A DNA stretch of 64,000 bases from Bacteroidia bacterium (GCA_045805205.1 JBJMLR010000010.1:263388-327387), one strand, 5' to 3'. Positions 2,046-16,795 are shown, numbered from the stretch's first letter. The notes: a model not told the origin generated them from the letters alone. Numbers and translations are program-made.

Positions 2046-5000
2046 CTATTTAATCAACGTAAGCGGCCCTGTATATTTATGTTCTTCTCCGTTTGCGAAC
2101 GAAATAAAGATCTTGTAGACAAAAACCTGCGGTTCGGCGATATCACCCTTATATTTTCCATCCCATCCTGAATTTTTATCATTGGTTTCAAAAACCTTTT
2201 CTCCCCAGCGATCAAAGATCATCATCCGCACCGAAGTAATGTTGTCACCTTTTATCCTGAAGACATCATTGACGCCGTCACCATTCGGTGAAAATGCATT
2301 CGGGAAAAACGCGGAGCACTCCTCTGAAATGATCACGGTTATTTCATCGGTGCTTGAACAGCCATTTGCATCCGTCACGGTGAGATAGTATGTGCCTGTC
2401 GCATTTGTATCCACTACAGGTTCAAGGCAATTGATGCAGCTTAACCCTGCGGATGGCGTCCAGCTATATGTTCCCGTAGAAGCCGAAGCATTGATCGTTC
2501 CGGTTTCTCCCGATATGAGTGTCATATCCGGTCCGGCATTTACAAGCGGATTTGGATTTATTGTTACCGTTACATCATCGGAGACCGTACCACACCTATT
2601 TGATGCTTGTACGCTATAGGTAGTAGTGCTTACGGGAGCAACCGAAACCGCAGAAGTAGTTTCTCCCGTGCTCCAGGAATAGTTTCCGGTGGAGCTCACG
2701 GCGCTTAGCATCGCTGAATTTCCGGCACAGATAACGATGTCTCCGCTCGCGGTGATCGTCGGAGGATCAACGGTGGTGATCGTTACCGATCCCGTATCAC
2801 TCACACAGTAGCCGTTCACTACATACAGTTGATAGATGCCGCCGGAAGAAGCTGTTACAGGATAGATCAGGGGAGATATGGATCCGCTGCTGAAACCGCC
2901 CGGACCGGACCAATAATAAGTATATCCTGCAAGTGAGTTTGCGGAAAGTACAAGCGAATCACCGGTGCAAATGCTGTCACTGACGGTAAGTATCGGTGAT
3001 GCAACCGGCGGAGTGATGCTGATCGTGATCGTATTGGAAAGACTTGTGCATCCGTTTGTATCTGTTGCTTCTACGATCAGGATCGTCGGACCCGTCACTG
3101 TGGAAATTGAGTAAGTGAATCCTCCCGCAAGGAAATTATGTGCGGCATCATACCAGCTGACAACCAGGCTGGAGTCATTTGTCGCTGTGTACGTAAGAGG
3201 TGTTCCTGCACATACGCTGGTATCCGGGATCGCAGCGAGTAACGGAGCGGCGAGCAATGAAAGCGCTGTGGTATCCGATTGTGCAGTACAGCCGGACGGA
3301 TCAGTATACGTATAATAATATTGCCCCGCTGCGGTTACAGGGTTGTTCATCGCAGTGCTTCCGTTATTCCAGAGATAAGATCCCGGGAGCGTATCGGTCA
3401 AAAGTATCAGCGTATCATATTGACAGATCACATAGGAGCTGCTTGTGAACGGATGCAGCACCGGATCATTGACCGTAATATATATACTGTCGGTTTGGCT
3501 TGCGCAGAAACCGGAAAAGGCAGTTACTGAATAATAACCGGAAGTTGCCAGGGTCACAGGATAAACGAAAAGATGAGTGGAATCAAATGCGGTGATGCCC
3601 GGGCCGTTCCATGTATAAGTGGTACCTGCTGCCGGCGCTCCGACTTCCAGAAACAATGTATCACCTGCACATACTACCGGTCTGCCAATGATCACCGGCT
3701 TCTGCGAGCCGTTGAAGATATTGACGTTAACGGGAACAGCAGCACTCATGCACGTTCCATTGTTATTTGCGACGAAGAAAGTACTGTCGTTCTGTCCCAT
3801 TGATACCGGAAGTGATGAGCCGGTTCCTACAACATTTCCATTCACCAATTCATTAAACCAATAGATGCTTCCGGTTCCTGAAGCATTCAGCGTAAGCGAT
3901 GTTCCCGGGCAAACAGTTGTATCGCTTACAGTTGGAGGAGTAACTTCCGGATAAGCATAAACGATCACGCTATCGCTGCTGATACAGCCTTCCAGATTCG
4001 TTGCCTGTACATAATAAGTTCCGGGTCCTGTTGTGGTATAGCTCATTCCGGTTTCCATGGATGGAATCCATGTGTAGTCAACAAATCCGGGAGAGCCAAC
4101 GAGAATAACTGTATCCTGGCTGCAGATCGTATCGTTGCCCCAGTACATCAGATCTACTGCTGCACCTGTTCCGGTTGTGATCGTAATGCTTGCAACGGTG
4201 GTAATGCTGCAGGAGTTAACGCTCACCGTATAGGTTCCCGGCGATGTAATCGTCTGCGTCAGTGAGCTTCCGCTGAATGGAGTTGCCCAATTGATCGTTG
4301 ATGCATCATTGGTCTGCAATGTAATGATCACGGACCCGCTCGCACATAAGCTTGTTCCGGGAGCGGATTCAAGATAAGGTGTGCTGTACTCTTTTACTTC
4401 GACCATTTCAGACACAAGCAAACAGCCCGTCGGAGAAATATAGGTGTAATAATATATTCCCGGTGTGCTGGTCCAGATACTTGCGGTGGTTCCGAGAACC
4501 ATGCCGGTAGGGCCGTACCACAGGTATGAGCTTCCCGGCTGAGCAGTAAGCTGAACGGAATCGAATGGACAAACCAATCCGTTTGCAGGCAGCATTGTTA
4601 CAAGTGGTGCCGGCATCGAATGCAGATCGAAATAATACCATTGTGTGGACGAGCAGCCAAGGACCGTGTCAGTGGTAGTGGAGGTAAGTGTGTATTGCCC
4701 TTCCTGGTTTACAATTGCACTGTCTCCCGAAGGATATACATTTACAAGGCCCGGGCCTCCCCAAACATAGTTATCACCGCCACTCGCGGATAAAGTAACA
4801 GAGTCGCCCGGACAAAAATAAGTTGCGCCGCTGATCAGCGGTACATTTGACGGAGCGCTGTGTGCATCGAGATAGAATGTTCTGCTGACAGTTCCCCATG
4901 ATGTTCCGGTGATCGGGTCAAGGATGTTTGCGGTTGCAGTGCAAATCCCGCTGGTGAGTGCTTTGAAGTCTTGTGTGTGATCCCAGAAGGTATTCGAATA

Positions 5001-7301
5001 GGAGAGGTAGGGGTCAAAAGTATAACCTCCGGTGATCGTCCAGTGAACATAGGTTGCGACAAAGGAAGGCAATCCTGCGTAAAAAGATGCGCTGTCGACC
5101 AGGCGCATTCTGAAATGATCATTCGCACATACACGAACCGTATCCGTTGTGTTAAAAGTAGTGTCCGTAAAGATCAGCATGGGTGTGATGGCAGAAAGAG
5201 GGAGCCCCGTGCCGCCGGCATAACCTCCACCACATGGTCCATAAGTAAAAAGATCGATACACTCTCCATTGTTACACATTCCACCCGGACTGGATGAGGT
5301 CAGCGAATAGTTTCCCGGCAGGTATGCATAGATTGTATCATTTGTGCTCGTAGCGCCCCCGGGAAGATTCCAGTGAAAGGTATATCCGGCTGGAATTCCC
5401 GAAGCCACGAACATTGCAGTATCTCCACAGGGGATCAACGCTTTGTGCAAGCAAGGTGTAAGCGGTATCGCATCCAGGTCAATGCAGTGATGGGCCGTAA
5501 TTATTGGTGTCGGAGGAGTTGCATAGATCTGTACGTAAAATGAATCCACAAATCTTCGGCAATCGTCGGCATATCCGTAATCAACATAATATAATCCGCT
5601 TGAAGTGATCTTTGTCCGGAAGTGAGTGGCTCCGTTCGACCAATTGTAGACCCAATCCGGAGCCTGAAGGCTGTCCACGGTTGTAGGTGTATTGATACCG
5701 GCATAAACAAAATCACAGCCGGTGATCGTATCACCAAGCGGCCAGCGGTAGGGCATGAGTGTATCGTTAACACAGGTTCCGCTTATGCGTTTGAAATAAT
5801 CATAAGGAGGGGTAACATTGTTCACTGGCCGCGAGATCAGGATGTCCTTATTGCCCCATCCTTTTTGCGTTACGAAAGCTCCGCCTGACATCGCTCCGCA
5901 GAGGGTAAGTCCGAAATTTCCGTTCAGTGTATTCAGATTATTTACATGCGTGGTGAAATTGAATCCATCAGGGGTGTTGAAATTCTTCGAGTAGCTGCCT
6001 GCGAATACCGGCTGGTCGTTAAAGTAAACATCGAGCGCAGTCGGATAGTCATCACCGATCCCTCCATATTGCTTTTCCCATGTGCGATGGAGCAGGCTGT
6101 CATACTTCACAACGTATATATCGCGGAATCCCACGCTGTTAAAAATGCCGTTGCCATGGATCGCAGAGAAAGTGGTAAGAGAGCATTTGAAATATCCGGC
6201 AGTAAAAATGTTGCTTTGCTGGTCGATGGTAATTCCGCGCGAAGAGATCGAGTTATCACTGCCCTCGGTTGTTCCGGTGATGTAATCGCCGTTCAGTGTG
6301 TTGACCTTTACAGCAAACACCTTGTAGATCGAAGGATTGGTGAGATAATCGTTTGGAGTGCCGATGTAACAAAATGCGCCCTGGAAATCACCGGTCATCC
6401 AGATGTTTTTCTCCTTTACTTTCATGTCATACACCATGAACTGCGAAGCGATCATTCTTCTGAACCACATTTCATTTCCCGCGGTATCGAGTTTCATCAC
6501 TAGTCCTGCGTTAAAAGCATTGTTCGGATAGGTTCCCGTAAATGAGATCGTGTCGGAAAACTGTCCGCAGGTGTATATATTGTCCTGTGCATCGACCGCT
6601 ATTTTCAGGATACGATCATCATAAAGTGCACTTCCCTGTTTTGCCCAGGTAACTGTGCCGGATGAATTTGTTTTGAAGATAAATGCATCATAAGAGGGAA
6701 GCCCTCCGCCTGATGCCATTGTCGGCGGATAATTGACAGACGTAAATGTATAGCTGCCGAAAGTAGAAGTGCCTTTGAATTCTCCGCCGACGATAATATT
6801 TCCGAATGCGTCGGTACAGATGTCATTCGGCAGATCGGTATCAGCGCCGCCATAGCTTTTTGCCCAAATAAAATTTCCGGCGTTGTCAAGTTTAGCAATA
6901 AATACATCCTGCGAACCGGCAATTGACGTAAGCGAAGTGCTGCCGAACAGAGCGGTTCCTCTGAATACACCTGTGATGAAGATCTCTCCGGCTCCGTTCA
7001 CAGTGATCGCCGTTGCTTTTTCATCCATGATGCCTCCGGCAGGAACTACCCAAAGATATGTTCCGAGTGAATCTTGCTTTGCGACAAAAACGTCGCTCAT
7101 TCCGGAAGAAGGGATAACAATATTATCGAAACGGGCAGCCATGCTGAAATATCCTGTGGAATAAACATTCCCAAGATTATCATGAACAAGATCAAGTGCT
7201 TCGTCATTGGCGTTCCCGCCGGCACCCTGCAGCCAGTTATGCTGGGAAAAGCCGGTTACACGTAAAAGGGTGATTATAAGAAGCAGGAGTAAATGTTTCA
7301 T
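2046..7301 (-). CDS. Large surface protein: N-terminal beta-propeller (SBBP-like repeats), Ig-like repeats, T9SS type B (gliding motility-associated) C-terminal domain
   Basis: Likely start MKHLLLLL at 7301; DVFVAKxD..G..W repeats; C-terminal FPNAFSPNGDGVNDVF..IFDRWGE..WDG. Confidence 0.9.
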   Translation of the reverse strand: MKHLLLLLIITLLRVTGFSQHNWLQGAGGNANDEALDLVHDNLGNVYSTGYFSMAARFDNIVIPSSGMSDVFVAKQDSLGTYLWVVPAGGIMDEKATAITVNGAGEIFITGVFRGTALFGSTSLTSIAGSQDVFIAKLDNAGNFIWAKSYGGADTDLPNDICTDAFGNIIVGGEFKGTSTFGSYTFTSVNYPPTMASGGGLPSYDAFIFKTNSSGTVTWAKQGSALYDDRILKIAVDAQDNIYTCGQFSDTISFTGTYPNNAFNAGLVMKLDTAGNEMWFRRMIASQFMVYDMKVKEKNIWMTGDFQGAFCYIGTPNDYLTNPSIYKVFAVKVNTLNGDYITGTTEGSDNSISSRGITIDQQSNIFTAGYFKCSLTTFSAIHGNGIFNSVGFRDIYVVKYDSLLHRTWEKQYGGIGDDYPTALDVYFNDQPVFAGSYSKNFNTPDGFNFTTHVNNLNTLNGNFGLTLCGAMSGGAFVTQKGWGNKDILISRPVNNVTPPYDYFKRISGTCVNDTLMPYRWPLGDTITGCDFVYAGINTPTTVDSLQAPDWVYNWSNGATHFRTKITSSGLYYVDYGYADDCRRFVDSFYVQIYATPPTPIITAHHCIDLDAIPLTPCLHKALIPCGDTAMFVASGIPAGYTFHWNLPGGATSTNDTIYAYLPGNYSLTSSSPGGMCNNGECIDLFTYGPCGGGYAGGTGLPLSAITPMLIFTDTTFNTTDTVRVCANDHFRMRLVDSASFYAGLPSFVATYVHWTITGGYTFDPYLSYSNTFWDHTQDFKALTSGICTATANILDPITGTSWGTVSRTFYLDAHSAPSNVPLISGATYFCPGDSVTLSASGGDNYVWGGPGLVNVYPSGDSAIVNQEGQYTLTSTTTDTVLGCSSTQWYYFDLHSMPAPLVTMLPANGLVCPFDSVQLTAQPGSSYLWYGPTGMVLGTTASIWTSTPGIYYYTYISPTGCLLVSEMVEVKEYSTPYLESAPGTSLCASGSVIITLQTNDASTINWATPFSGSSLTQTITSPGTYTVSVNSCSITTVASITITTGTGAAVDLMYWGNDTICSQDTVILVGSPGFVDYTWIPSMETGMSYTTTGPGTYYVQATNLEGCISSDSVIVYAYPEVTPPTVSDTTVCPGTSLTLNASGTGSIYWFNELVNGNVVGTGSSLPVSMGQNDSTFFVANNNGTCMSAAVPVNVNIFNGSQKPVIIGRPVVCAGDTLFLEVGAPAAGTTYTWNGPGITAFDSTHLFVYPVTLATSGYYSVTAFSGFCASQTDSIYITVNDPVLHPFTSSSYVICQYDTLILLTDTLPGSYLWNNGSTAMNNPVTAAGQYYYTYTDPSGCTAQSDTTALSLLAAPLLAAIPDTSVCAGTPLTYTATNDSSLVVSWYDAAHNFLAGGFTYSISTVTGPTILIVEATDTNGCTSLSNTITISITPPVASPILTVSDSICTGDSLVLSANSLAGYTYYWSGPGGFSSGSISPLIYPVTASSGGIYQLYVVNGYCVSDTGSVTITTVDPPTITASGDIVICAGNSAMLSAVSSTGNYSWSTGETTSAVSVAPVSTTTYSVQASNRCGTVSDDVTVTINPNPLVNAGPDMTLISGETGTINASASTGTYSWTPSAGLSCINCLEPVVDTNATGTYYLTVTDANGCSSTDEITVIISEECSAFFPNAFSPNGDGVNDVFRIKGDNITSVRMMIFDRWGEKVFETNDKNSGWDGKYKGDIAEPQVFVYKIFISFANGEEHKYTGPLTLIK

Positions 7302-7605
7302 GCACGTGAGTTTTGTTGATACTAATTTGAGAATGAATTGGCGAAGGGGCAAATGAAAATGAAAATACCTTACGCGTTCAAATTCAATATTTTTTGTAAT
7401 CGGCAAGTATATAAGGTGTTTCAGTCGAATATACAGCTGCAGTCAAATTGTTATCTGATCGTTTTATCCCGCCCTAAAACGGGAAAAGCCTCTTTTTGTT
7501 GTTTATTCGGGCTCTCCTGATAACTAATGTACTTGAACTTAAGGGATTTCCGTCACCCAATTAGTTTACGGTAGCTTTGATCCTTTAAGCGGTCCGTTCA
7601 GTTTC

Positions 7606-7672
7606 CGCTTTAACCCGGTCCGCCGCCGAACAACATCCCCATGTTTCTTGCGGCAGACCTGCGGTTAAAGAA
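7606..7672 (-). ncRNA. Putative structured RNA hairpin, copy 1 (apex ACAU-GGGG-AUGU)
   Basis: Minus strand TTCTTTAAC-CGCA-GGTCTGCCGC-AAGAAACATGGGGATGTTGTTCG-GCGGCGGACC-GG-GTTAAAGCG; covaries with copy 2. Confidence 0.65.
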
Positions 7673-7674
7673 GA

Positions 7675-9387
7675 TCAATGCGTTTTGATGAAGCGTGCCG
7701 AAGAAAGTTTCTTTCCATCGCTCAGGGTTATAAAGTAAAGTCCGTCCGGGAGCTCACTGATATCGACCTGTTGCCCGCCTGCTTGTAATTCAACGTATTT
7801 CAGAAGCTTTCCTGTTGCATCGTAGATTGCTGCTGTTGCATTGTTGCCGGAGTGCTTTACAATAATATGGTCATTGGCCGGGTTCGGATAAATTGAAAAC
7901 TCAGCTGTGCTTTGGTGAGTTGCGATTCCCGTTGTGCTGCTGCATCCGCAAGCGGTGATCCCGCTGCTGAATTTCTGGTGCAGGCTGTCGATGCGTTCTT
8001 TCAGTAATGAAACGCTAGCGAGATTACCGCCGGATGAAGCCTTGGCGTACACGTATGCAAGATCGATCTCATTTACTGCGCCGGGTTGCCAGGTAAACGG
8101 GCCATAGGAAGCAACACCACGGCGGTCTGAAGGAACATGCATGTCGCTCACTTCATCCCAGGGCGATTGCGGAACTCCGAAAGTTCCGAAGCTGCCGGGA
8201 TCGCTGCTGCCCGGAAAGAGATATTTGCAGACGGTGCCGGTCAAATGACCATAGCCTCCGTACGTCCAGGGAGTGCCGTCTCTCCAGGCTCCCGCCATGT
8301 AGTCATAATAGTCTGCCGGCACGCTTGGATTTCCCATAGGGCTTGCGTCATTCTCGAAGTAGAGAAAATGTCCCATTCCCAAACGTTCATTGTCGATGAT
8401 GCTGTCGCCGTAATTTGTGCCGTTGGCTACAGATGAACTTACATCATCAAGTCCATTCGGATCCGCATAAGGGCCGGTCAGCAATACGACGCCTTGCGCG
8501 GGTGGATTCAATCCGTAAGGGATCTCTCCTGCGGGCGGACTGTCATCGATGGAATCGCCGTTGAAAGCATAATATGTACTTCTGCCGACATCGCACCCGA
8601 CAAAATCATCAGTGGCGCTGCCGATATCAAAATCGGTCCAGCTTCCCATGAAGGCGGAATCGAGGCGAAAAGAGCTTTTATTAGTGATCTTGTAATTTAC
8701 AAAAACGGTATTCGCGAGTACGCTATCCGTATTGCAGCCGTATTCATATACCATGCACTGGATCTCCAATCCGATTGCATTGCCTCCGGTTTCGGTGTGC
8801 ACACCTCCCTTGTCGTTGTACACGAAGAAGATCGCCTGGTCGCCTTTGATGACCGGGTAATCGCCCGCATATGGATCGTACACGCCGTTGCCGTTGGTAT
8901 CATTGTAAGGTGCCAGCGACGCTCCGGATGGACTTGAAGCGGGCCAGGTAAGAATTGTATTCATGGCAACAGAGTCTACGGGATTCGGGCCGAGCTCACC
9001 GCCATAAAACCAACTCATGTATGAATCGATATCACATTTGTTTAATTTCCAGACACGATCATAAGCTGCAATTGTTGAAGGGGTTATCGAGGCAGTTGCA
9101 TCAAGCGGTCCTGGCCAGAAATCATTACCGGTTTGCCGATACGTTGATCCGGCGATCTTCAGCGTGTTGCTCGCATCGATTCCGCCGAACCATAAATTGC
9201 TTGCAAAAATGGTTGAGCGGCCGCTGCCTTTCGGCACTTCAAATTTTGGATTCATAAAGTCCCAAAACAGTGCGCCCTGGGAGTTTACGCCTGCTTTGAT
9301 GTTATTTATATCCAGCTGAGCAAAATTAGATTGTGAAAATGCAGCACCTGATCCTAGAAGAAGTGACGCGACGATTAATTTTTTCAT
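7675..9387 (-). CDS. Secreted T9SS type A sorting domain protein of unknown function; paralog of 209..1930
   Basis: Likely start MKKLIVASLLL at 9387; C-terminal IYPNPA..IYDATGK..GLYFI..RFIK; shares blocks such as GDYPxIKGDQAIFFVxNDxGGVHTETGG with 209..1930. Confidence 0.9.
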   Translation of the reverse strand: MKKLIVASLLLGSGAAFSQSNFAQLDINNIKAGVNSQGALFWDFMNPKFEVPKGSGRSTIFASNLWFGGIDASNTLKIAGSTYRQTGNDFWPGPLDATASITPSTIAAYDRVWKLNKCDIDSYMSWFYGGELGPNPVDSVAMNTILTWPASSPSGASLAPYNDTNGNGVYDPYAGDYPVIKGDQAIFFVYNDKGGVHTETGGNAIGLEIQCMVYEYGCNTDSVLANTVFVNYKITNKSSFRLDSAFMGSWTDFDIGSATDDFVGCDVGRSTYYAFNGDSIDDSPPAGEIPYGLNPPAQGVVLLTGPYADPNGLDDVSSSVANGTNYGDSIIDNERLGMGHFLYFENDASPMGNPSVPADYYDYMAGAWRDGTPWTYGGYGHLTGTVCKYLFPGSSDPGSFGTFGVPQSPWDEVSDMHVPSDRRGVASYGPFTWQPGAVNEIDLAYVYAKASSGGNLASVSLLKERIDSLHQKFSSGITACGCSSTTGIATHQSTAEFSIYPNPANDHIIVKHSGNNATAAIYDATGKLLKYVELQAGGQQVDISELPDGLYFITLSDGKKLSSARFIKTH

Positions 9388-9423
9388 TCGTATATGATTT
9401 GGTAAAAGGGGATTCTTTTTTTC

Positions 9424-9490
9424 TGCCCTAACCCCGCCTGCTGCCGAACAACATCCCCATGTTTCTTGCAGCAGGCGATGGGCCAAAGCA
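9424..9490 (-). ncRNA. Putative structured RNA hairpin, copy 2, in the 5' leader of 7675..9387
   Basis: Minus strand TGCTTTGGC-CCAT-CGCCTGCTGC-AAGAAACATGGGGATGTTGTTCG-GCAGCAGGCG-GG-GTTAGGGCA; same 67-nt layout as copy 1; outer stem needs G-U pairs. Confidence 0.65.
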
Positions 9491-9502
9491 TTTTTGCTGA
9501 TA

Positions 9503-9510
9503 CAAACATA
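9503..9510 (-). promoter_or_regulatory. Bacteroidota housekeeping -7 promoter element
   Basis: TATGTTTG on the minus strand matches TAnnTTTG, just upstream of hairpin copy 2. Confidence 0.55.
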
Positions 9511-9546
9511 CATCGTCAAATGCCCTGCTTTTTTTCGGTTTATGGC

Positions 9547-9897
9547 AATAGTATACAGGTCAACAACTCTTTTTCGGGTTCAGGAAGCTCTAAGAGGATT
9601 GATTTTACTGGCTTTTTATAAGATCCGGCAGTACACGTCAACCGGTTTTTTCACTTTTGGGAATAGTATACATGTCTGAGGCCTGTTTTTGGATAAGCGA
9701 TAGTCGTTCTCCCGTTATGAATTCTGATAAATAAGAAGTAATTTAGAGTGTCTTTCAGTTTAAAGCATGCCTGTATTTACTGCAAATAAAGAAGGATAGC
9801 GTGTTTAATAAACCGGTGGTTTATTAAAAAACATTATAGGCGAACCGAGGCAAGCCGGTAATGGAGAAACAAAATACCTTAAAAGTATACATGTCAA
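9547..9897. promoter_or_regulatory. Repeated candidate operator AGTATACAnGTC (3 copies) plus an 11-bp inverted repeat
   Basis: AATAGTATACAGGTCAA 9547-9563; AATAGTATACATGTC 9662-9676; AAAGTATACATGTCAA 9882-9897; TTTAATAAACC-GGT-GGTTTATTAAA 9804-9828. Confidence 0.5.
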
Positions 9898-11444
9898 ACA
9901 AAGCGTCCGACAATCTTTTTCAGCTGATCAAATCGCTGAACAAATCTGAAAAAAGATATTTCAGCCTTTATGCATCGCGTCATACATTGGGAGAGAAGAA
10001 TAATTGTGCGGTGTTGTTTGAAGCGATCGACAAACAAAAGGAATACAATGAAGATGCGCTCCTGAAGCAATTTAAGAAAGAAGCATTCATCAATAAATTC
10101 TCGATCACGAAAGCACGTTTGTATGATACGATTCTTGACAGTCTTACAGCCTTTCATTCCTCGAGCTCCATCGATGCGCAGTTAAAACGGGATCTGCATT
10201 GTGCGGAGATCCTTTATAAGAAGACTTTATACATACAATGTTCAAAGCTGCTCAACAGCGCAAAAAAAATTGCGCTCAAATATGAACGTCATTCCTCTTT
10301 GCTGGAGATAAGTCTCTGGGAAAAGAAGCTGGTTGAAACGGAGAACTATTCCGGGAAGAAAGATGCTGATATTCTCCGCATGCTGGAGGAGGACAATATG
10401 ATCAATGAGAAGATCCGGAACTTCAATGAGTATTGGAACATCAAAAGCCGCTTTTTCACGATCCTGAACAAACAGGGAAAGGTGCGGAATGCTGAGGAGC
10501 TCCACCGTTTTAAAAAGATCATAGATAACACACTGCTGAAGGGAGAAGATAAAGCACTTTCCACCGAAACGCGTTACCTGTTCTATCACATATACAGCGC
10601 TTATTACTTCGGTATCGGTGAATATGCAAAGAGTTATCAGAATCTCGTGAAGAATGTTCAGCTCATCGAGTCGAATCCTGATATTTTTCGCGAAGAACCC
10701 AATATTTATTTCTCAGTTTTAACAAATGAGATCTATGTCGGCAGCCAGCTGAAGAAATACAAGGAGGTTTTTTCGAGCCTGAAAAAATTACGCTTAGCGC
10801 TGGTTGAATTTGAAAACGGAAAGAACGAGGATCTTGAAGTGAAGCTGTTTTCGAGCGCGATGAGCATTGAGCTTTCTATTTATATGCAGACCGCGGAATT
10901 TGAGAAAGGGATCGAGCTGGCGCCGAAGATCGAGGAGAAGCTGGCGAAATATCCGGGTAAGTTCACAAAGCTCAGGGAGGCGTATTTTTACTTTAATGTA
11001 GCGGCCATGTATTTTGGCGCTGAGAGATATTCACTTGCATTGAAGTGGATCAATAAATTGCTGAACAGCCCTAATTTTGAAGAGAGTGAGAATATCTATT
11101 GCTTTGCTCAGATCATGAGCCTGATCATCCATATCGAATTAAAGCATGATGATTTTGTGCCGACGGCTTTCAAGAGTGTATATCGTTACCTCAGCTCGAG
11201 GAACCGGGTATATAAATTCGAGAATGTGTTCCTGGACTTTATCGGGAAGATCCTGAAGACGACGAAAAGAGAAGAGCAGAATAAATATTACCGGGAGCTG
11301 AAAAATGCGCTGGTAGAGCTAAAGGACGATGCTTTCGAAATGGCGGCATTTGAATATTTTGATTTTATTTCCTGGGCGGAAAGTAAAGTTCAGAGAGTGC
11401 CGTTCAGGGTGATAAAGGAAGAAACTGCAGGGGAGATGAAATAG
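9891..11444 (+). CDS. Cytoplasmic all-helical (TPR-like) hypothetical protein, candidate transcription regulator
   Basis: Likely start MSNKASDNLFQLIKSLNKSEKRYF; no signal peptide; TPR-like segments (YFGIGEYAKSYQ, YFGAERYSLALKWINKLLN); divergent from T9SS cargo genes. Confidence 0.75.
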   Translation: MSNKASDNLFQLIKSLNKSEKRYFSLYASRHTLGEKNNCAVLFEAIDKQKEYNEDALLKQFKKEAFINKFSITKARLYDTILDSLTAFHSSSSIDAQLKRDLHCAEILYKKTLYIQCSKLLNSAKKIALKYERHSSLLEISLWEKKLVETENYSGKKDADILRMLEEDNMINEKIRNFNEYWNIKSRFFTILNKQGKVRNAEELHRFKKIIDNTLLKGEDKALSTETRYLFYHIYSAYYFGIGEYAKSYQNLVKNVQLIESNPDIFREEPNIYFSVLTNEIYVGSQLKKYKEVFSSLKKLRLALVEFENGKNEDLEVKLFSSAMSIELSIYMQTAEFEKGIELAPKIEEKLAKYPGKFTKLREAYFYFNVAAMYFGAERYSLALKWINKLLNSPNFEESENIYCFAQIMSLIIHIELKHDDFVPTAFKSVYRYLSSRNRVYKFENVFLDFIGKILKTTKREEQNKYYRELKNALVELKDDAFEMAAFEYFDFISWAESKVQRVPFRVIKEETAGEMK

Positions 11445-11454
11445 GACCGGTGGG

Positions 11455-11494
11455 AAAAAGTAGAGGCGACACTCGCTCTCAAAAGTGCCGCCTC
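11455..11494 (-). terminator. Rho-independent terminator for the small minus-strand ORF (possibly bidirectional)
   Basis: GAGGCGGCACT..AGTGTCGCCTC stem followed by TACTTTTT on the minus strand. Confidence 0.7.
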
Positions 11495-11542
11495 CGGGTC
11501 TAAACTAAAAACTAAACAAACAAACTAAACTCTAAAGTTATC

Positions 11543-11668
11543 TCAGATCGAATTATAGATGCTGAAGAAGATGATCGATACGGTTGCAATCGCTAACAGT
11601 ACGGTTACGGTTCCGATACCTTCCTGGTGGTATGTATGACCGTGGCGGATTGATGTTTTTCTGTTCAT
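11543..11668 (-). CDS. Small 41-aa single-transmembrane peptide (below the ORF-track cutoff)
   Basis: MNRKTSIRHGHTYHQEGIGTVTVLLAIATVSIIFFSIYNSI*; AT-rich leader AACCAATTTAAATTTCAAAGCC; own terminator. Confidence 0.65.
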   Translation of the reverse strand: MNRKTSIRHGHTYHQEGIGTVTVLLAIATVSIIFFSIYNSI

Positions 11669-11769
11669 GGCTTTGAAATTTAAATTGGTTGATTCAAGTA
11701 AAATTGTTGCCATCGTATTAAAGTTTTAATTCTTATATGAATTTCCTTTCGGAATTAATTTCTGAAGTA

Positions 11770-11845
11770 AGGTGCGGGCGTTTGCCTATTAATTTAAACA
11801 ACATCCCCATGTGCCAATTAATTTTGCTGCAAACCTCCCACACCT
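11770..11845 (-). ncRNA. Putative structured RNA hairpin, copy 3, upstream of the small peptide gene
   Basis: Minus strand AGGTGTGGG-AG-GTTTGC-AGCAAA-ATTAATT-GGC-ACATGGGGATGT-TGTTTA-AATTAAT-AG-GCAAAC-G-CCCGCACCT; different stem, same apex. Confidence 0.55.
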
Positions 11846-11926
11846 GCTCTTATTCTAAACACTATTTGAATGAACTTCTGGTCAATATTACGCCGGAAAT
11901 CAATGGAAGGATAGCCACAATGAGCG

Positions 11927-11992
11927 AGTGGCAGGTTGGATTATTTAACGGTAGGAAATAAAATTTAAACGGTGAAAGGGCTTGAGGAGTGG
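11927..11992 (-). promoter_or_regulatory. Phased direct repeats, candidate LytTR binding sites
   Basis: AGTGG 11927, AACGG 11947, AACGG 11968, AGTGG 11988 (spacing 20/21/20 bp), directly downstream of the LytTR gene. Confidence 0.5.
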
Positions 11993-12013
11993 CAAATGGA
12001 TTATTGTAACTAC

Positions 12014-12766
12014 CTATAAATGAGACAGTTTTTCTAAGAAGTCTGTTTTGTTGCGTCGGGAGACCTCCACCTGGGAGTTATCCGTCATCACTACGTAGCC
12101 GCCTTCTCCCTTAATGTATTTCTTTACATGCTCAAGATTGATGAGATGTGAGCGGTGGATCCGGAAGAAGTTATCATCTGCAAACATTTGCTCGTATTCC
12201 CCGAGCGTTCTTGATGCGATAATTTTCTTACCGTTCGTCAGGATAAAGAAAGTATAATTCCCGTCGGAATCACACCGGATGATATCGGAGAGATTAATAA
12301 AGATCAGTCCGTCTCCATCGGGTATGCCAACCTTTTTTAATTTATTTTCCGTGCGAACGTTGGATAGCAGTGCTTTGAACTGCTTATCCAGTGTATTGTT
12401 CTTCTGGCCGTTTCGTTCTTCAAATCTCTTTACTGCCAGCACCAGCTCTTCGGGATCGATCGGTTTGAGGATATAATCCACCGCGCTGAACTTGATCGCT
12501 TTGATTGCATAATGATCATAGGCTGTGGTAAAGATGATGTTAAAATTGATCTCCTTGAATTTTTCCAGCAGGTCGAATGCATTTCCGTTGGGCATTTCAA
12601 TATCGAGGAATACAAGATCGGGAGCCTTATTGGTGATTGCTTCAAATGCGGCGAGCATCGAATCAACTTTCGCGACAACCTCCACCTGCTTGCAGTTTTT
12701 TTCCAGCATTTTTGAAAGTGATTCCCGTGCACCTAACTCGTCGTCAACAATAATAGCTCTGATCAT
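12014..12766 (-). CDS. LytTR family response regulator
   Basis: REC domain (IIVDDE, LVFLDIEMP, FTTAY, DYILKP) plus LytTR domain (FFRIHRSHLIN, VSRR). Confidence 0.95.
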   Translation of the reverse strand: MIRAIIVDDELGARESLSKMLEKNCKQVEVVAKVDSMLAAFEAITNKAPDLVFLDIEMPNGNAFDLLEKFKEINFNIIFTTAYDHYAIKAIKFSAVDYILKPIDPEELVLAVKRFEERNGQKNNTLDKQFKALLSNVRTENKLKKVGIPDGDGLIFINLSDIIRCDSDGNYTFFILTNGKKIIASRTLGEYEQMFADDNFFRIHRSHLINLEHVKKYIKGEGGYVVMTDNSQVEVSRRNKTDFLEKLSHL

Positions 12767-12783: not shown

Positions 12784-15753
12784 TTAATCATTTTCATTGG
12801 TATCCAGCGGGATGATCAATCTTACTTTTGTGCCGGATGCTTTACCGTCCTCAAAAAGGTCGATGATCTCTGCATAGATATTACTGTTCAGACTGGAGTT
12901 CAGAATATCCAACCGTTCCTTCGTGATGCTCATCCCCATCGATTTATGCTGCTGAACCCTGTTCTTTTTGAATTCGATCGATCTCCCTCTTCCGATCCCA
13001 TTATCTTCAACAGTGCAAAGGATCGTGTCTCCCTGTTTTTGTAAAGTTATTGAAATTTTTCCGTTTCCGCCTTTCGGGAGCAAACCGTGAATAATTGCAT
13101 TTTCCACGTACGGCTGGATCAGCATTGACGGGATCCGGTCGTATGTTTGATCGATCGCAGGATCGACGGAGATCGTATAAATAAATTTCTTGTCGAAACG
13201 CATTACTTCGAGCTCAAGATACAGCTCAAGCGCATTGATCTCTTCTGAAACCGCGATCACCGGCTGCTTGGAATTGTCCATGATCCTCCGCATGAGCTTT
13301 GCAAACTTTGAAAGGTATTTCAGGGCGGCATCGGTATCGCTGTTCGAAATATAATGCTGGATCGAGCTAAGTGTGTTGAAAATAAAATGCGGGTTCATCT
13401 GAGCCCTCAACGCCTGGGACTCGATATTTGCGATCTTCTTGTTCAATTCGGTTTTCGCCTTTTCTTTCAATTTGATCCGGCGGATCCTGATCCGGATGGA
13501 GAAGATCAGTGCAAGCAATATAAGAGTGCTGGAGCTGATCATAAAGAACCATGTTTTCCAGAACGGCCGTTCAATGGTAAAAGTAAACTCAGCAGGCTTC
13601 TTGTTCCAGATGCCTTCGTTGTTAGAGCTCTTTACTCTGAATGTATATTTTCCCGGAGGCAGATTGGAATAGGTTGCAAACCGGTCCTTTGTGGGCGGCG
13701 ACCAGTTCTTTTCAAATTCGTCAAGGATATGTGAGTACTTTACCTTTGACGGGTTGGTAAGACAAATTCCGGAATAGCTGAAGGTGATATTATTGTCGTC
13801 GTAATCAAGGTGGACATTGTTGGTCAGGACCGTATCCTTGTAAAACAGGCGGAATTGAGTAATGCTGATCTTCGATTCAAAGTTATTCGGAATATATTCC
13901 TTCGGATCATACTTGATCAGTCCGTAAACCGTACCGAACCAGATGGAGCCGTCGTTGTCGATGAATGTTCCATTGCCGTTACATTCCACGCCTGAAAAGC
14001 CGTCATTTTTTCCAAACTGTACAATGTCCTTTACTCCTTTATTGCGATACTCATCAAAATCGATCCGGTTAAGACCTTGATTTGTTCCGACCCAGATCTC
14101 ATTTTGAGATTTTCCAAAGGTTAGTGAGTATACGAGGTCGGAGCTCATTCCATCTTTCTGTCCGAATTTTACCGGTTTTTTTTCCGGGTCGAGAGGATCG
14201 ATGATCCAGAGGCCATCAAGCGTTCCGAGGTAGAGCGATCCTTGCTTATCTACAAGAGAAGCAAGATAAGAGTCATTTTTAAGGCCGCGTTCTTTGCTGC
14301 ATTCCGTAAATGTGGTCCCGTCATACCGGATCAATCCGCCCAGGTAGCTTCCTATCCAGAGGTTTCCTTTTTTGTCTTCAGCGAAAGTCCACACATCAAA
14401 TTTTTCGATCAGACCTTTGAGTGGATAGCAGGTGAACTTTGTACCGTCAAACCGGAACACTTTTGAGTTGCTTCCGAACCACAGATTATTTTTTGAATCC
14501 TTATAGATGACATTGATCGCATCATGCCATACGGATGAAGTATCATTTTTCTTTGAAAATCTATTCCCATCCCAGATCCTTAACCCGCTTTCAGTTCCGA
14601 GCCAGAGAATTCCGGGAGAATACTCATAGATCATATTCACGCTGCTGGCATCAAGACCATTGCTCCTGTCATAATGAATGAAGCCATCGTTCTGATCGTA
14701 GCGATACAATCCACCCTGTGATCCTACCCATAAATTTCCTTTTGCGTCACGATGAATACCGTATATGAAGTTATTGGTCAGGCCATCGTGAATACCATAA
14801 GTGATGAAGGGATTTCCACGGTACTTAAAAAGTCCGGCATAAGTTCCGATCCAGAGATTATGTTCAAAGTCTTCATAGAAGCAGCTCACCAGGTTGCTAT
14901 TCTGATCGCGCTTGATCAGGTATTTTGTGAAGTGCTCCTTTTCGAATTTTACCAGGCCTTTACCTGTTCCGATCCAAAGTACATTCTTGTAATCGACGAG
15001 AACACATCGCGCATCATTGTCAGGAAGCCCCTGATCCTGGTTGTAGCACAAAAATGTATTGTTTCTGAACCGGCAGATCCCGTTGGGGGTTGCTATCCAG
15101 ATATTTCCATCCTGGTCCTGTGTGATGGAATTGATCACATTCGTAGAAAGACCGTTTTTTGTGCTGAGACTGAGGAATTTTTTTCCGTCAAAAACAGTAA
15201 TGCCTTCCGTTGTTCCGATCCATACATTTCCGGCTTTATCCTGGAACAGGCATTTTACGGTGTTCCCGATAAGTCCGTTTACCCGGGAAAAATTAATGAA
15301 GGCGCCACCGCTGAGCCTGGAGATCCCTTTGTCGGTTCCGAACCACAGATCGCCTTTCTTATCGCGGAGTGAAGTGGTGACCGCGTTGCTGATCAGTCCG
15401 TTCTTTTCCGTAAAGCTGGTGAAGGTCTTTCCATCGTATTTATTGATCCCGCTGATGGTCCCGATCCAGAGATTTCCCAGGCTGTCCTCATTAATGGTGG
15501 TGACAAGGTGATTGAGTAGTCCTTCATTAGGAGAAAAATTGGTAAAGGAAATCCCGTCGAATTTACTGAGGCCGCCATATCCGCCGCTCCAAAGATTTCC
15601 TTTGCTATCCTGGAAAACGGTTGACACGTTTATGAAGGGTAATCCGTCTTCCACGGAATAATTCCGGAAGAAGGTAGATTGTGCACTGCTTTGTTCTGAG
15701 AGGAGGAGTGCGATAAAACAAAAAAGAAAGACGATTCTCTTCTTAATGATCAT
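12784..15753 (-). CDS. LytS-type sensor histidine kinase with periplasmic beta-propeller and Y_Y_Y domains
   Basis: Likely start MIIKKRIVF at 15753; D..G.LW.GT..G repeats; YSNLPPGKYTFRV; TM helix; ALRAQMNPHF, QPYVENAIIHG, DNGIG. Confidence 0.93.
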   Translation of the reverse strand: MIIKKRIVFLFCFIALLLSEQSSAQSTFFRNYSVEDGLPFINVSTVFQDSKGNLWSGGYGGLSKFDGISFTNFSPNEGLLNHLVTTINEDSLGNLWIGTISGINKYDGKTFTSFTEKNGLISNAVTTSLRDKKGDLWFGTDKGISRLSGGAFINFSRVNGLIGNTVKCLFQDKAGNVWIGTTEGITVFDGKKFLSLSTKNGLSTNVINSITQDQDGNIWIATPNGICRFRNNTFLCYNQDQGLPDNDARCVLVDYKNVLWIGTGKGLVKFEKEHFTKYLIKRDQNSNLVSCFYEDFEHNLWIGTYAGLFKYRGNPFITYGIHDGLTNNFIYGIHRDAKGNLWVGSQGGLYRYDQNDGFIHYDRSNGLDASSVNMIYEYSPGILWLGTESGLRIWDGNRFSKKNDTSSVWHDAINVIYKDSKNNLWFGSNSKVFRFDGTKFTCYPLKGLIEKFDVWTFAEDKKGNLWIGSYLGGLIRYDGTTFTECSKERGLKNDSYLASLVDKQGSLYLGTLDGLWIIDPLDPEKKPVKFGQKDGMSSDLVYSLTFGKSQNEIWVGTNQGLNRIDFDEYRNKGVKDIVQFGKNDGFSGVECNGNGTFIDNDGSIWFGTVYGLIKYDPKEYIPNNFESKISITQFRLFYKDTVLTNNVHLDYDDNNITFSYSGICLTNPSKVKYSHILDEFEKNWSPPTKDRFATYSNLPPGKYTFRVKSSNNEGIWNKKPAEFTFTIERPFWKTWFFMISSSTLILLALIFSIRIRIRRIKLKEKAKTELNKKIANIESQALRAQMNPHFIFNTLSSIQHYISNSDTDAALKYLSKFAKLMRRIMDNSKQPVIAVSEEINALELYLELEVMRFDKKFIYTISVDPAIDQTYDRIPSMLIQPYVENAIIHGLLPKGGNGKISITLQKQGDTILCTVEDNGIGRGRSIEFKKNRVQQHKSMGMSITKERLDILNSSLNSNIYAEIIDLFEDGKASGTKVRLIIPLDTNEND

Positions 15754-16795
15754 TCTTTTTAAGGAGTGAGTCCCAGCCTTGGGCAGTAAGGGGATGTACG
15801 GTTCCGCCTTTTGAAATGAGATTGGTCCCATCTTTTGCGGCGGTCATATGCCCGATAACGGTGATATCGGGATTTGCTTTTATTTTTGGAAAATCCGACT
15901 GATCGATGGTGAACAGCAGCTCATAATCTTCTCCCCCGCTCAATGCGCATAGGGTCGGATCGAGATTGAATTCGCGGGCAGCATTGTATGCAGAAGGATC
16001 GATCGGAATTTTTTCTTCATAAAGATTGCATCCTAAACCGGATTGTGTTGCAATGTGAAGGACCTCGGAAGCGAGTCCGTCGGAAATATCGATCATCGCA
16101 GTGGGTTTTACTTCAAGCTTTTTCAGCAGTTCAGGAATGTCTTTTCTTGCTTCCGGTTTCAGCTGGCGCTCGAGGATATAATCGTTGCCTTCGAGATCAG
16201 GCTGAACACCGGGTGTTTCCATAAAGATCTGTTTTTCGCGTTCCAGCAGCTGAAGCCCGACATAGGCAGCGCCGAGGTCTCCGCTCACGCAAAGCAGATC
16301 GCCCTCTTTAGCAGTGTCACGATATACAAGGTCGTCCTTGTCCGCTTCACCGATCGCAGTAATGCTGATGACGAGTCCGCTCCGGGAGCTGGTAGTATCA
16401 CCGCCAACGATATCGACCTTATGTTTTGCTGCAGCGAGCATAAGTCCCGAATACAGCTCTTCAAGCGACTCTACAGAAAAGCGGTTCGAAATGCCTAATG
16501 ACACGGTGATCTGTTTTGGAGAAGCATTCATTGCATAAATGTCCGACACATTTACCGAAACGGCTTTAAAGCCGAGATGTTTCAGAGGGACATACGAAAG
16601 ATCAAAATGAACCCCCTCGATCAGCATATCAGTGCTTACTACCGTTTGTTTGCCTTTAAAGTCGATCACGGCAGCATCGTCGCCGATCCCTTTTACAGTA
16701 CTTTCATTCTTGATCTCAATGAATTGGGTCAGGTGTTTTATGAGGCCAAATTCGCCAAGGTCGCTCAACTCCGTCCGGTTGGTATTTTCAAGCAT
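15743..16795 (-). CDS. thiL: Thiamine-monophosphate kinase
   Basis: GEFGLI, GIGDDAAV, NVSDIYAM, VGGDT, IDISDGLASE, GGEDYELLFT. Confidence 0.95.
   Translation of the reverse strand: MLENTNRTELSDLGEFGLIKHLTQFIEIKNESTVKGIGDDAAVIDFKGKQTVVSTDMLIEGVHFDLSYVPLKHLGFKAVSVNVSDIYAMNASPKQITVSLGISNRFSVESLEELYSGLMLAAAKHKVDIVGGDTTSSRSGLVISITAIGEADKDDLVYRDTAKEGDLLCVSGDLGAAYVGLQLLEREKQIFMETPGVQPDLEGNDYILERQLKPEARKDIPELLKKLEVKPTAMIDISDGLASEVLHIATQSGLGCNLYEEKIPIDPSAYNAAREFNLDPTLCALSGGEDYELLFTIDQSDFPKIKANPDITVIGHMTAAKDGTNLISKGGTVHPLTAQGWDSLLKKNDH

Follow-up and report, generated by a model that had tools for sequence, protein, structure and literature searches.

The stretch of Bacteroidia DNA analyzed here (64,000 nt; the window) carries three members of what is a lineage-specific family of structured RNAs, each a long hairpin with an invariant apex. 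RNA-type structure with covariation, a uniform strand, a recurrent gene context, promoter motifs and conserved complementarity mark this family, and the reading we prefer, with a probability of about 0.5, is that its members are seed-bearing regulatory RNAs that would work like staphylococcal RNAIII. The invariant core ACAUGGGGAUGUUGU is present in 53 of 68 genomes of this single-genus order and essentially nowhere else, at the tip of stems of 20 to 35 bp whose sequences vary while their pairing is retained.

On the minus strand of the window, the 16-mer ACATGGGGATGTTGTT occurs at 7629-7644, 9447-9462 and 11797-11812, as a sequence-only reading of this DNA had reported, and these are the only three matches at up to 2 mismatches (shuffles, n = 100, gave a mean of 0.04, and none gave three). 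Folded as minus-strand RNA, copies 1, 2 and 3 reach −37.5, −41.4 and −29.5 kcal/mol, far better than shuffled sequences (z = −5.6, −6.7 and −3.4), and the plus strand folds more weakly (−29.0, −28.8 and −23.1 kcal/mol). Copies 1 and 2 do share an identical center, which measures 27 nt rather than the 23 nt given earlier, and the compensatory stem differences described between them are borne out, with three both-side pair changes and one U·G to U-A change in the inner stems (GGUCUGCCGC/GCGGCGGACC versus CGCCUGCUGC/GCAGCAGGCG) and outer stems that differ as claimed. The features of the locus are given below from high to low coordinates; copy 3 is delimited as 11756..11853, where the sequence-only reading had 11770-11845.

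12784..15831, minus strand: sensor histidine kinase (Reg_prop, Y_Y_Y, His_kinase, HATPase_c)
12014..12766, minus strand: response regulator with receiver and LytTR domains
11942..11973, minus strand: two direct repeats, ACCGTTTAAAT and ACCGTTAAATA, starts 21 nt apart, in a LytTR-binding-site arrangement
11883..11890, minus strand: TAATATTG, −7-like box of the type B promoter
11756..11853, minus strand: hairpin copy 3, type B, flanked by the LytTR-type promoter and the peptide ORF (R1, 100.4 bits, E 2e-21)
11543..11713, minus strand: conserved 56-aa peptide ORF, hydrophobic helix at the C terminus (19 clusters, none from outside this lineage)
11462..11495, minus strand: terminator-like hairpin and T-run 3' of the peptide ORF, which would close a type B transcript of ~420 nt
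9861..11444, plus strand: 527-aa RusR-like protein (distant relative of the BT_2802 family), divergent from the cargo promoter
9546..9563, minus strand: TTGACCTGTATACTATTG box, possible activator site; similar boxes recur to ~9700
9503..9510, minus strand: TATGTTTG, −7 promoter box upstream of copy 2, fitting TAnnTTTG
9424..9490, minus strand: hairpin copy 2, type A, opening the predicted cargo transcript at its 5' end
7675..9387, minus strand: 570-aa T9SS cargo gene (Por_Secre_tail)
7606..7672, minus strand: hairpin copy 1, type A, intercistronic, following the 570-aa cargo gene, whose TGA stop is at 7677-7675
2046..7301, minus strand: 1751-aa adhesin-like T9SS cargo gene (Ig_7, CHU_C)

With respect to the family as a whole, 76 of 83 distinct core-bearing flanks form long hairpins, and the sense strand is the better fold in 69 of the 78 typed first. 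The stem of copy 3, described earlier as unrelated to the other two and still paired, does pair, and it is no odd one out, as its form, type B, is the commonest genus-wide (47 of 76 typed long hairpins). In an alignment of the 47 distinct type B sequences, all copies upstream of the peptide, 93.2% of cells pair. Both partners change at 14 of the 29 pairs, in 63 cells overall; shuffles give 16.1 (none of 500 reaches 63) and sliding the partner strand gives 10 to 28, so that covariation exceeds both controls. Two G-U pairs are retained, in 41 and 46 of the 47 sequences, and together with the covariation they support structure on the mRNA-sense strand, as had been proposed, rather than a DNA palindrome. 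The invariant apex, GGGG(A/G)UGUUGU(U), spans the loop, the apical stem on its 3' side and the opening bases of the 3' internal loop. Searches of Rfam 15 with window positions 7000-12500 (E up to 10) returned three weak matches, none on the hairpins, and five related loci (E up to 1) gave no match on hairpins either, in agreement with the earlier failure to place the family in Rfam. Each hairpin-bearing genome holds 1 to 5 copies, all at one syntenic locus and in a single orientation, uniform relative to the genes. Among the relatives, five "short" core copies have no ORF following on the complementary strand.

The locus runs from the histidine kinase and the LytTR regulator through a hairpin, the 56-aa membrane peptide and the RusR-like regulator to a promoter, a second hairpin and the T9SS cargo genes. 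The hairpins lie either 0 to 13 nt after TAnnTTTG, the Bacteroidota −7 promoter consensus (PMC7366714), or −6 to +38 nt from an upstream stop codon. The placements proposed for the window copies agree with what we find: copy 2 begins 12 nt downstream of TATGTTTG (9510-9503), copy 3 lies 50 to 84 nt before the peptide ORF at 11713, and copy 1, put at 3 nt past the preceding stop, begins 2 to 3 nt after it, ~300 nt ahead of the adhesin start. Type B copies have a same-strand LytTR regulator gene upstream in 46 of 47 cases, and 36 of the 47 have direct-repeat pairs 20 to 22 nt apart in the upstream region, against 0 of 47 shuffles and 0 of 28 type A, C and D copies. The −7-like box is placed upstream of the type B hairpin, 29 to 47 nt from its base in 27 of the 47 and 58 to 77 nt off in 8 more (an incomplete base estimate or a longer leader). 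Downstream, a conserved peptide ORF of 41 to 57 aa follows in 40 of 47, with a terminator-like site after it, suggesting that hairpin and ORF share one type B transcript. Promoter-proximal hairpins of the other types have a conserved TTGACCTGTATACTATTG-type box 95 to 100 nt upstream of the core (18 of 29 A, C and D copies), which may be an activator site, and a RusR-like gene is divergent at 22 of 27 A, C and D copies. The distance from hairpin to next start codon ranges from 4 to 325 nt, a variability that makes masking of a ribosome site in cis unlikely.

Stand-alone units occur in a relative, genome G033, in which three tandem units each consist of boxes, a promoter, the hairpin and eight consecutive U, the peptide ORF being absent. 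A G+C-rich stem followed directly by a U-tract is found solely in these three G033 copies; in the window, a terminator scan called none of the three hairpins and no U-tract follows them, as had been noted, and an intrinsic terminator is thus rejected for these three. Despite the stand-alone units, the target search in G033 gave no clear complementary site.

Within the genome of the window, the only other near-exact copies of the core (0 and 1 mismatch) are two reverse complements, both ending in ATG. They sit at the starts of two unlinked signal-peptide genes, one for a 106-aa secreted protein, located behind a PspC-domain gene, and one for a 219-aa outer-membrane beta-barrel. By duplex energy these genes rank 2 and 3 among 12,743 crude start windows (−28.8 and −27.7; mean over start windows −12.5, SD 3.18), and AACAACAUCCC(C/U)AUG is conserved among orthologues of both. 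At up to one mismatch, 16 of 28 leaders from orthologues of the first gene retain AACAACATCCC, as do 7 of 30 orthologue loci examined for the second (38 genomes matched); in the remaining 12 and 23 leaders the site is absent or partial. Over the 68 genomes AACAACATCCCYATGA has 11 sites, 10 of them at the two candidate target families, and a control pattern has 0. An orthologue occurs in only two hairpin-less genomes and the site is absent from both, a weak link given that these genomes are related. RNAcofold gives a net gain of only −1.1 to −5.7 kcal/mol, compared with −0.43 (SD 0.69) for 43 control leaders, kissing complexes being outside its model; most of the seed is paired within the 5-bp apical stem, on top of a very stable long stem.

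These candidate start-codon targets and the apparently stand-alone G033 units go beyond the sequence-only reading, which had proposed an RNA-level element, whether a cis-regulatory RNA, a protein-binding site or a processed sRNA. That proposal is supported, and the sRNA-type option gains most, because of the promoter-hairpin-terminator units in G033 and of complementarity that is conserved at start codons of two unlinked genes. Under the RNAIII-like reading, the invariant apex would be an antisense seed. Type B RNAs would be transcribed from the promoter with LytTR-type direct repeats, beside the kinase/LytTR pair, and this neighboring two-component system probably switches the hairpin RNAs on; the transcript would also bear the 56-aa membrane-peptide ORF in most genomes, and in G033 it would be a stand-alone small RNA ending at the U-tract. 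Types A, C and D would place the same seed hairpin within T9SS cargo mRNAs, at the 5' end or between cistrons, beside the RusR-like gene; as mRNA parts, these could act purely in cis. In at least two unlinked mRNAs (those for the 106-aa and 219-aa proteins), the seed would pair with AACAACAUCCC(C/U)AUG at the start codon, blocking initiation and perhaps creating an RNase III substrate. Transcription, pairing in vivo and the direction and sign of regulation, like every functional step here, are what we infer from sequence. Bacteroides is known to have sRNAs that base-pair with start regions and need neither Hfq nor ProQ, as well as sRNAs that come from 5' UTRs or from within operons (PMC7366714). 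A wider and more tentative picture is that this uncultured Bacteroidia order might have its own agr-RNAIII counterpart, in which a propeller-type kinase and LytTR regulator drive 1 to 3 G-loop seed RNAs, usually peptide-fused, with the seed also present in T9SS cargo/adhesin leaders and intercistronic gaps, so that surface-protein expression would directly lower a beta-barrel and a putatively ECF-controlled envelope protein via masking of C-rich starts.

The main competitor, which we consider unlikely but by some way the strongest of the alternatives, is a purely cis-acting element resembling an iron-responsive element, lambda boxB or a T7-type RNase III site, whose apex is read by a trans-acting protein or RNase that controls mRNA stability, processing or antitermination, with the start-region complementarity being incidental. 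Copies at transcript 5' ends and between cistrons, right after stop codons, would suit such an element, stems of 20 to 35 bp suffice for RNase III, which the genome encodes, and roles in stability or processing are compatible with the variable 4 to 325 nt to the start. It leaves unexplained, however, why two unlinked gene families keep the reverse complement at their start codons and why the terminated G033 units lack a downstream ORF, and the locus shows no evident gene for an RNA-binding protein. A CsrA/RsmA binding hairpin was considered on account of the GGA within the loop GGGGA and was rejected, as PF02599 is unmatched in this 100% complete genome and matches control genomes.

Much less probable is that the conserved 15 bp are a double-stranded DNA operator downstream of start sites at the hairpin loci and the two candidate target genes. 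The same 15 to 17 bp do occur in both orientations downstream of promoters, and a small palindrome, AACAT-N4-ATGTT, lies inside them, but orthologous target sites keep AACAACATCCC while losing a palindrome half (ATGAA), the strict orientation (G-rich at hairpins, C-rich at targets) is needed by RNA pairing and not by DNA binding, and an operator would not account for covarying long stems, kept G-U pairs and the one-strand fold bias. We give marginally less credence still to hairpins that are only attenuators or terminators tuning the ratio of short to read-through transcripts: the eight U after the G033 copies and U-rich tails on several type B copies fit this, whereas types A, C and D, like the window copies, have no U-tract, and a 12 to 15 nt apex invariant over unrelated stems is no requirement of a terminator. 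Copies flanking successive cargo genes in arrays, which duplication at the hairpin could produce, would be expected of a small mobile or recombinogenic repeat (REP, MITE or cassette-junction element); this is scarcely credible, and a REP/MITE-type dispersed repeat is rejected, given so few copies at one locus in one orientation, a conserved center with variable arms (the reverse of terminal-repeat elements) and no transposase or RAYT-type gene among the loci examined.

The closest known parallel to the RNAIII-like reading, in functional class and not in homology, is RNAIII itself, the agr P3 transcript of Staphylococcus aureus, a dual-function RNA that encodes the small peptide delta-haemolysin and is activated by AgrA, the LytTR-family regulator of the two-component system next to it. 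The hairpin family similarly has LytTR-type repeats with a neighboring LytTR pair (predicted from sequence signs), a peptide ORF predicted to be cotranscribed and a conserved apex complementary, at the sequence level, to two start regions. Unlike RNAIII, it has an inverted polarity (G-rich loop versus C-rich leader), one hairpin per unit instead of 14 and a seed that also sits within T9SS cargo mRNAs, and there is no sequence or Rfam relationship. The Vibrio Qrr sRNAs, with several paralogues, an invariant seed, activation by a response regulator and a terminator end, recall the three tandem G033 siblings. They need sigma-54/LuxO and Hfq and their seed is single-stranded, unlike the present one at the tip of a 25-bp hairpin. 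A conserved apical loop, a stem kept as pairing only and a position in leaders of co-regulated mRNAs are shared by iron-responsive elements and lambda boxB, which are read by proteins (IRP, N) and have no complementary target sites; the hairpin family, unlike them, has no known candidate reader protein.

To our knowledge, Bacteroidota have no Shine-Dalgarno pairing, Hfq, ProQ or CsrA and only a few base-pairing sRNAs with defined targets, and their post-transcriptional control is little known. We know of no earlier case, as far as our literature search reaches, of one seed hairpin serving as stand-alone sRNA, part of a peptide RNA and module of cargo mRNAs, the arrangement proposed here. With strong comparative support for structure, a 12 to 15 nt seed, two conserved candidate targets and a candidate upstream regulator, the hypothesis is directly testable, and if true it would couple T9SS cargo expression to outer-membrane composition.

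RNAIII uses conserved hairpin-loop motifs to pair with several mRNAs at the ribosome-binding region, in some cases loop to loop, and RNase III then cuts (PMC2837412). Within the same phylum as the hairpin family, Bacteroides thetaiotaomicron GibS has a conserved seed that pairs over the start codons of its targets without Hfq or ProQ, and sRNAs of that species can also derive from 5' UTRs and intercistronic gaps, the kinds of place where the hairpins are located (PMC7366714). The GibS seed is an unstructured 5' region, unlike that of the hairpin family, and GibS belongs to no multi-copy family and has no LytTR link; the two have no sequence similarity.

In the specific case of the 527-aa protein divergent from the cargo promoter, the match to NCBIfam NF058569 is full length at 187.9 bits (E 3.5e-55; curated cut-off 550 bits), and by this sequence comparison the protein is a distant relative of BT_2802 (RusR), below the NCBI membership threshold.

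As the sequence-only reading had claimed, the 16-mer occurs three times on the minus strand of the window, and our window search and folding place every occurrence at the apex of a long hairpin. The window has no other match, and across 100 shuffles the average was 0.04 matches, no shuffle yielding three.

7606-7672, minus strand: hairpin copy 1, type A
9424-9490, minus strand: hairpin copy 2, type A
11756-11853, minus strand: hairpin copy 3, type B

The minus-strand RNAs have folding energies of −37.5, −41.4, and −29.5 kcal/mol for copies 1, 2, and 3 (z = −5.6, −6.7, and −3.4), and the plus-strand folds are 6-13 kcal/mol weaker. Copies 1 and 2 do share an identical centre, which is 27 nt long rather than the 23 nt first proposed, and the compensatory nature of their stem differences is borne out by the sequences, in which both sides of a pair have changed. 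We regard the three-hairpin observation as confirmed, and its interpretation at the RNA level is supported by the better fold of the sense strand, by type B covariation above controls, and by the retained apical G-U pairs. A comparison with Rfam 15 at permissive E-values, which the sequence-only reading had proposed, placed no family on the hairpins in the window or at five related loci, and a literature search with the core sequence returned unrelated papers only, with nothing on the element.

With respect to structure, we collected 83 distinct core-bearing flanks from 77 loci. The flanks left out are one containing N (L048), four "short" ones, and two that had been mis-typed as B and fold weakly (L053 and L057), with two copies standing at locus ends; 76 long hairpins remain, each with approximately 16-36 enclosing pairs, and typing by the sequence 3′ of the core divides them into A (13), B (47), C (12), and D (4). 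The claim that an unrelated stem still pairs holds across this whole set, since the stems of the four types are mutually unrelated in sequence, and variable within a type too, yet pairing is kept. The sense strand is the better fold in 69 of the 78 hairpins first typed. For type B, 48 copies were realigned with a covariance model built from that type (R1), and the 47 distinct rows were analyzed; 93.2% of the cells are paired. Both-side changes occur at 14 of 29 pairs, in 63 cells, compared with 16.1 cells after column shuffling (63 was reached by 0 of 500 shuffles) and 10-28 cells after the partner column was slid 1-3 positions. Of the 47 sequences, 41 retain one apical G-U pair and 46 retain another. 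The alignment was fitted to R1, which biases these values in favor of pairing; independent evidence in the same direction comes from the slid controls and from types A, C, and D, whose stems are wholly different. "Short" exact-core copies, with neither a long stem nor an ORF on the complementary strand, are also seen in relatives (L016/L035, L023/L057, L053, and L056).

The window is part of contig C10 of a 4.65-Mb genome in 15 contigs, in which the 16-mer is found exactly four times and once with a single mismatch. The three sequencing runs found for it are DNA, all belonging to one soil-metagenome study. Within the family, which as searched equals one genus and one order (68 genomes), the 15-mer core ACATGGGGATGTTGT is present exactly in 53 genomes, with 0 matches to a reversed control pattern. 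The genome scan with a covariance model, likewise proposed beforehand, matches 55 of the 68 genomes and reveals the apex variants AACAAAGGGGAUGUUGUU, CAUGGGGGUGUUGUU, and GGCUCAUGGGGAUGUUGCC, so that the most constant part is GGGG(A/G)UGUUG. The distribution counts take in an unpublished genome (G067), on which alone no claim depends. Among 24 genomes from other families of the class, the 17-mer AACATGGGGATGTTGTT (≤1 mismatch) gave a single one-mismatch match in one genome, and scanning 185,579 species genomes with an 18-mer yielded 81 matches in 69 stretches. Sixty of these have at least 15 enclosing pairs and are labelled Bacteroidota MAGs except for two (Halobacteriovoraceae and Nostoc), of which one has only a weak fold; the remaining 21 include matches in unrelated phyla, at approximately a chance number, together with some cut or masked copies.

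The syntenic order is histidine kinase, LytTR regulator, type B hairpin, 56-aa membrane peptide, RusR-like gene (opposite strand), promoter, type A, C, or D hairpin, and cargo genes. The LytTR gene lies upstream on the same strand in 46 of 47 type B copies and the peptide downstream in 40 of 47, and a divergent RusR-like gene is present at 22 of 27 A/C/D copies. LytTR regulators bind two direct repeats of roughly 9 bp separated by 12 bp. We observe ACC(G/A)(C/T)T boxes paired at a 20-22 nt spacing upstream of type B in 36 of 47 copies (shuffles, 0/47; A/C/D copies, 0/28), and a TAATATTG-like box 29-47 nt before the hairpin in 27 of 47 copies and 58-77 nt away in 8 more. In two relatives (L020 and L049), the stretch from the LytTR gene to the repeat boxes, ahead of the type B promoter, contains a long simple repeat of the CCAAC/CCAACAA type.

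Types A, C, and D start 0-13 nt after TAnnTTTG, which PMC7366714 gives as the Bacteroidota −7 consensus, or else −6 to +38 nt after the stop of the cargo gene before them, and at promoter-proximal copies a TGACATGTATATAATTG box lies 95-100 nt upstream of the core (18 of 29). Several protein families are represented downstream, all of them signal-peptide or T9SS proteins. TTGAC-N-TGTATA boxes recur in the window at 9546-9700 and about 7430-7450 (both minus strand; e.g., TTGACCTGTATACTATTG), and relatives conserve the box at a constant distance of 95-100 nt upstream of the core; this box may be a binding site of the RusR-like protein. A 76-82 aa protein that appears from its sequence to be a T9SS C-terminal domain on its own is often encoded after an intercistronic type C hairpin (L028, L038, L040, and L065) and also at L015.

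The type B unit is tandemly duplicated in some relatives, with two copies accompanied by the peptide in G080 (L058) and three lacking it in G033 (L025). The G033 units are approximately 245 bp apart, each consisting of repeat boxes, TAATATTG, hairpin, and eight U, and the only ORF of at least 22 aa between the hairpins is one 23-aa frame, indicating that the hairpin RNA can by itself make up the product. A terminator-like site lies 3′ of the peptide ORF in the window and predicts a type B RNA of approximately 420 nt.

The two remaining near-exact core copies in the window's genome lack a long stem. The opposite strand of both reads AAACAACATCCC(C/T)ATGTTAAA(G/A)AAA, and its ATG starts a signal-peptide gene.

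C5:665670-665685, 0 mismatches: candidate target 1, a 106-aa protein with no Pfam match, behind a PspC-domain gene
C11:792250-792265, 1 mismatch: candidate target 2, a 219-aa OMP_b-brl (beta-barrel) protein

Among all 29 ACAACATCC(C/T) sites in the genome, these two alone stand immediately next to a real start codon; one other site adjoins a 50-aa frame antisense to hairpin copy 3. When 12,743 crude start windows are ranked by the energy of their duplex with the apex, the two candidate targets come second and third (−28.8 and −27.7; mean, −12.5; SD, 3.18), behind a 60-aa frame that probably does not represent a gene. AACAACATCCC (≤1 mismatch) is found in 16 of 28 ortholog leaders of the 106-aa gene, usually touching the ATG, and at 7 of the 30 beta-barrel ortholog loci examined (38 genomes matched), with (C)ATCCCC-ATG kept in several more beta-barrel leaders. 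Across the 68 genomes, AACAACATCCCYATGA occurs 11 times (control pattern, 0), eight at orthologs of the 106-aa gene and two at beta-barrel orthologs. The complementary stretch of the leaders coincides with the most constant part of the hairpin. Two hairpin-less genomes have an ortholog (G006 and G087), both with ordinary A-rich leaders; this co-absence of hairpin and leader motif is only suggestive because it involves just these two genomes. Upstream of the 106-aa gene there is a conserved TGTAACTT...CGTC motif (L001:1440-1515, the genome's own C5, and orthologs), which resembles an ECF sigma promoter, and the position after a PspC-domain gene suggests an envelope-stress context.

We favor the reading of the hairpin family as a seed-bearing regulatory RNA, with a probability of about 0.5. 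Contact would begin between the GGGG loop and the leader CCCC, pairing would extend through the 3′ strand of the apical stem to the 3′ internal loop and over the start codon, and RNase III, which is encoded in the genome, could then cut. The closest working analogue is RNAIII, which in the account given in PMC2837412 is driven by AgrA (LytTR) and encodes delta-haemolysin; its conserved loops base-pair with ribosome-binding regions and engage in loop-loop contacts, after which RNase III cleaves. Bacteroides sRNAs acting at start regions without Hfq are documented, as described in PMC7366714. The hairpin would be a base-pairing regulatory RNA of a known kind in unusual modular deployment, and few such cases are known in the phylum. 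Against this reading, however, much of the seed is base-paired, target-site conservation is incomplete, and no clear target site was found in G033, where such sites were looked for. The RNAcofold net gain for hairpin plus leader, with nested pairs only, is also small (−1.1 to −5.7 kcal/mol; 43 controls, −0.43, SD 0.69), and these energies neither establish nor exclude pairing because RNAcofold cannot represent a kissing complex.

A purely cis-acting element recognized by a protein or RNase is possible but doubtful, and is to be set against the start-codon sites at two genes unlinked to the hairpin locus. A DNA operator is improbable beside the sense-strand folding and the covariation, a plain attenuator, despite the eight U in G033, is quite improbable, and a mobile repeat, given the syntenic order, is scarcely credible. 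A cis anti-loop was rejected, as apex complements 30-160 nt downstream are not enriched overall (observed versus expected: B, 18/47 versus 13.3; A, 9/13 versus 4.0; C, 2/12 versus 2.3; D, 2/4 versus 1.0). CAUCCCU-type loop complements in the same transcript are seen approximately 27-30 nt after the type C core (L039, L040, L062, and L068) and approximately 135 nt after the type A core (L011, L037, L051, L059, and L076), and a cis loop-leader contact may form in these subtypes. We also rejected a leader peptide (the MGML frame from the core is not conserved, and after the core it differs or stops at once depending on type), a CsrA site (CsrA is not encoded in the genome), and rRNA pairing (across the 16S region and the following 3.5 kb, the apex has no perfect complement of at least 7 nt).

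The 527-aa neighbor matches NCBIfam BT_2802_fam over its full length, with a score below the cutoff; BT2802/RusR is described in bioRxiv 10.1101/574913 as a putative positive regulator of unknown mechanism. The genome encodes eight such RusR-like paralogues, all likewise below the cutoff.

Window 9861-11444, plus strand: the 527-aa neighbor
C10:81571: RusR-like paralogue
C5:111641: RusR-like paralogue
C11:119074: RusR-like paralogue
C11:126253: RusR-like paralogue
C11:395854: RusR-like paralogue
C11:536741: RusR-like paralogue
C11:660561: RusR-like paralogue

No comparable hairpins were recognized at the other paralogues among the loci listed. Several adjoin genes with signal-peptide-like N termini, often divergently, which hints that RusR-like proteins form a family of regulators devoted to secreted or T9SS proteins.
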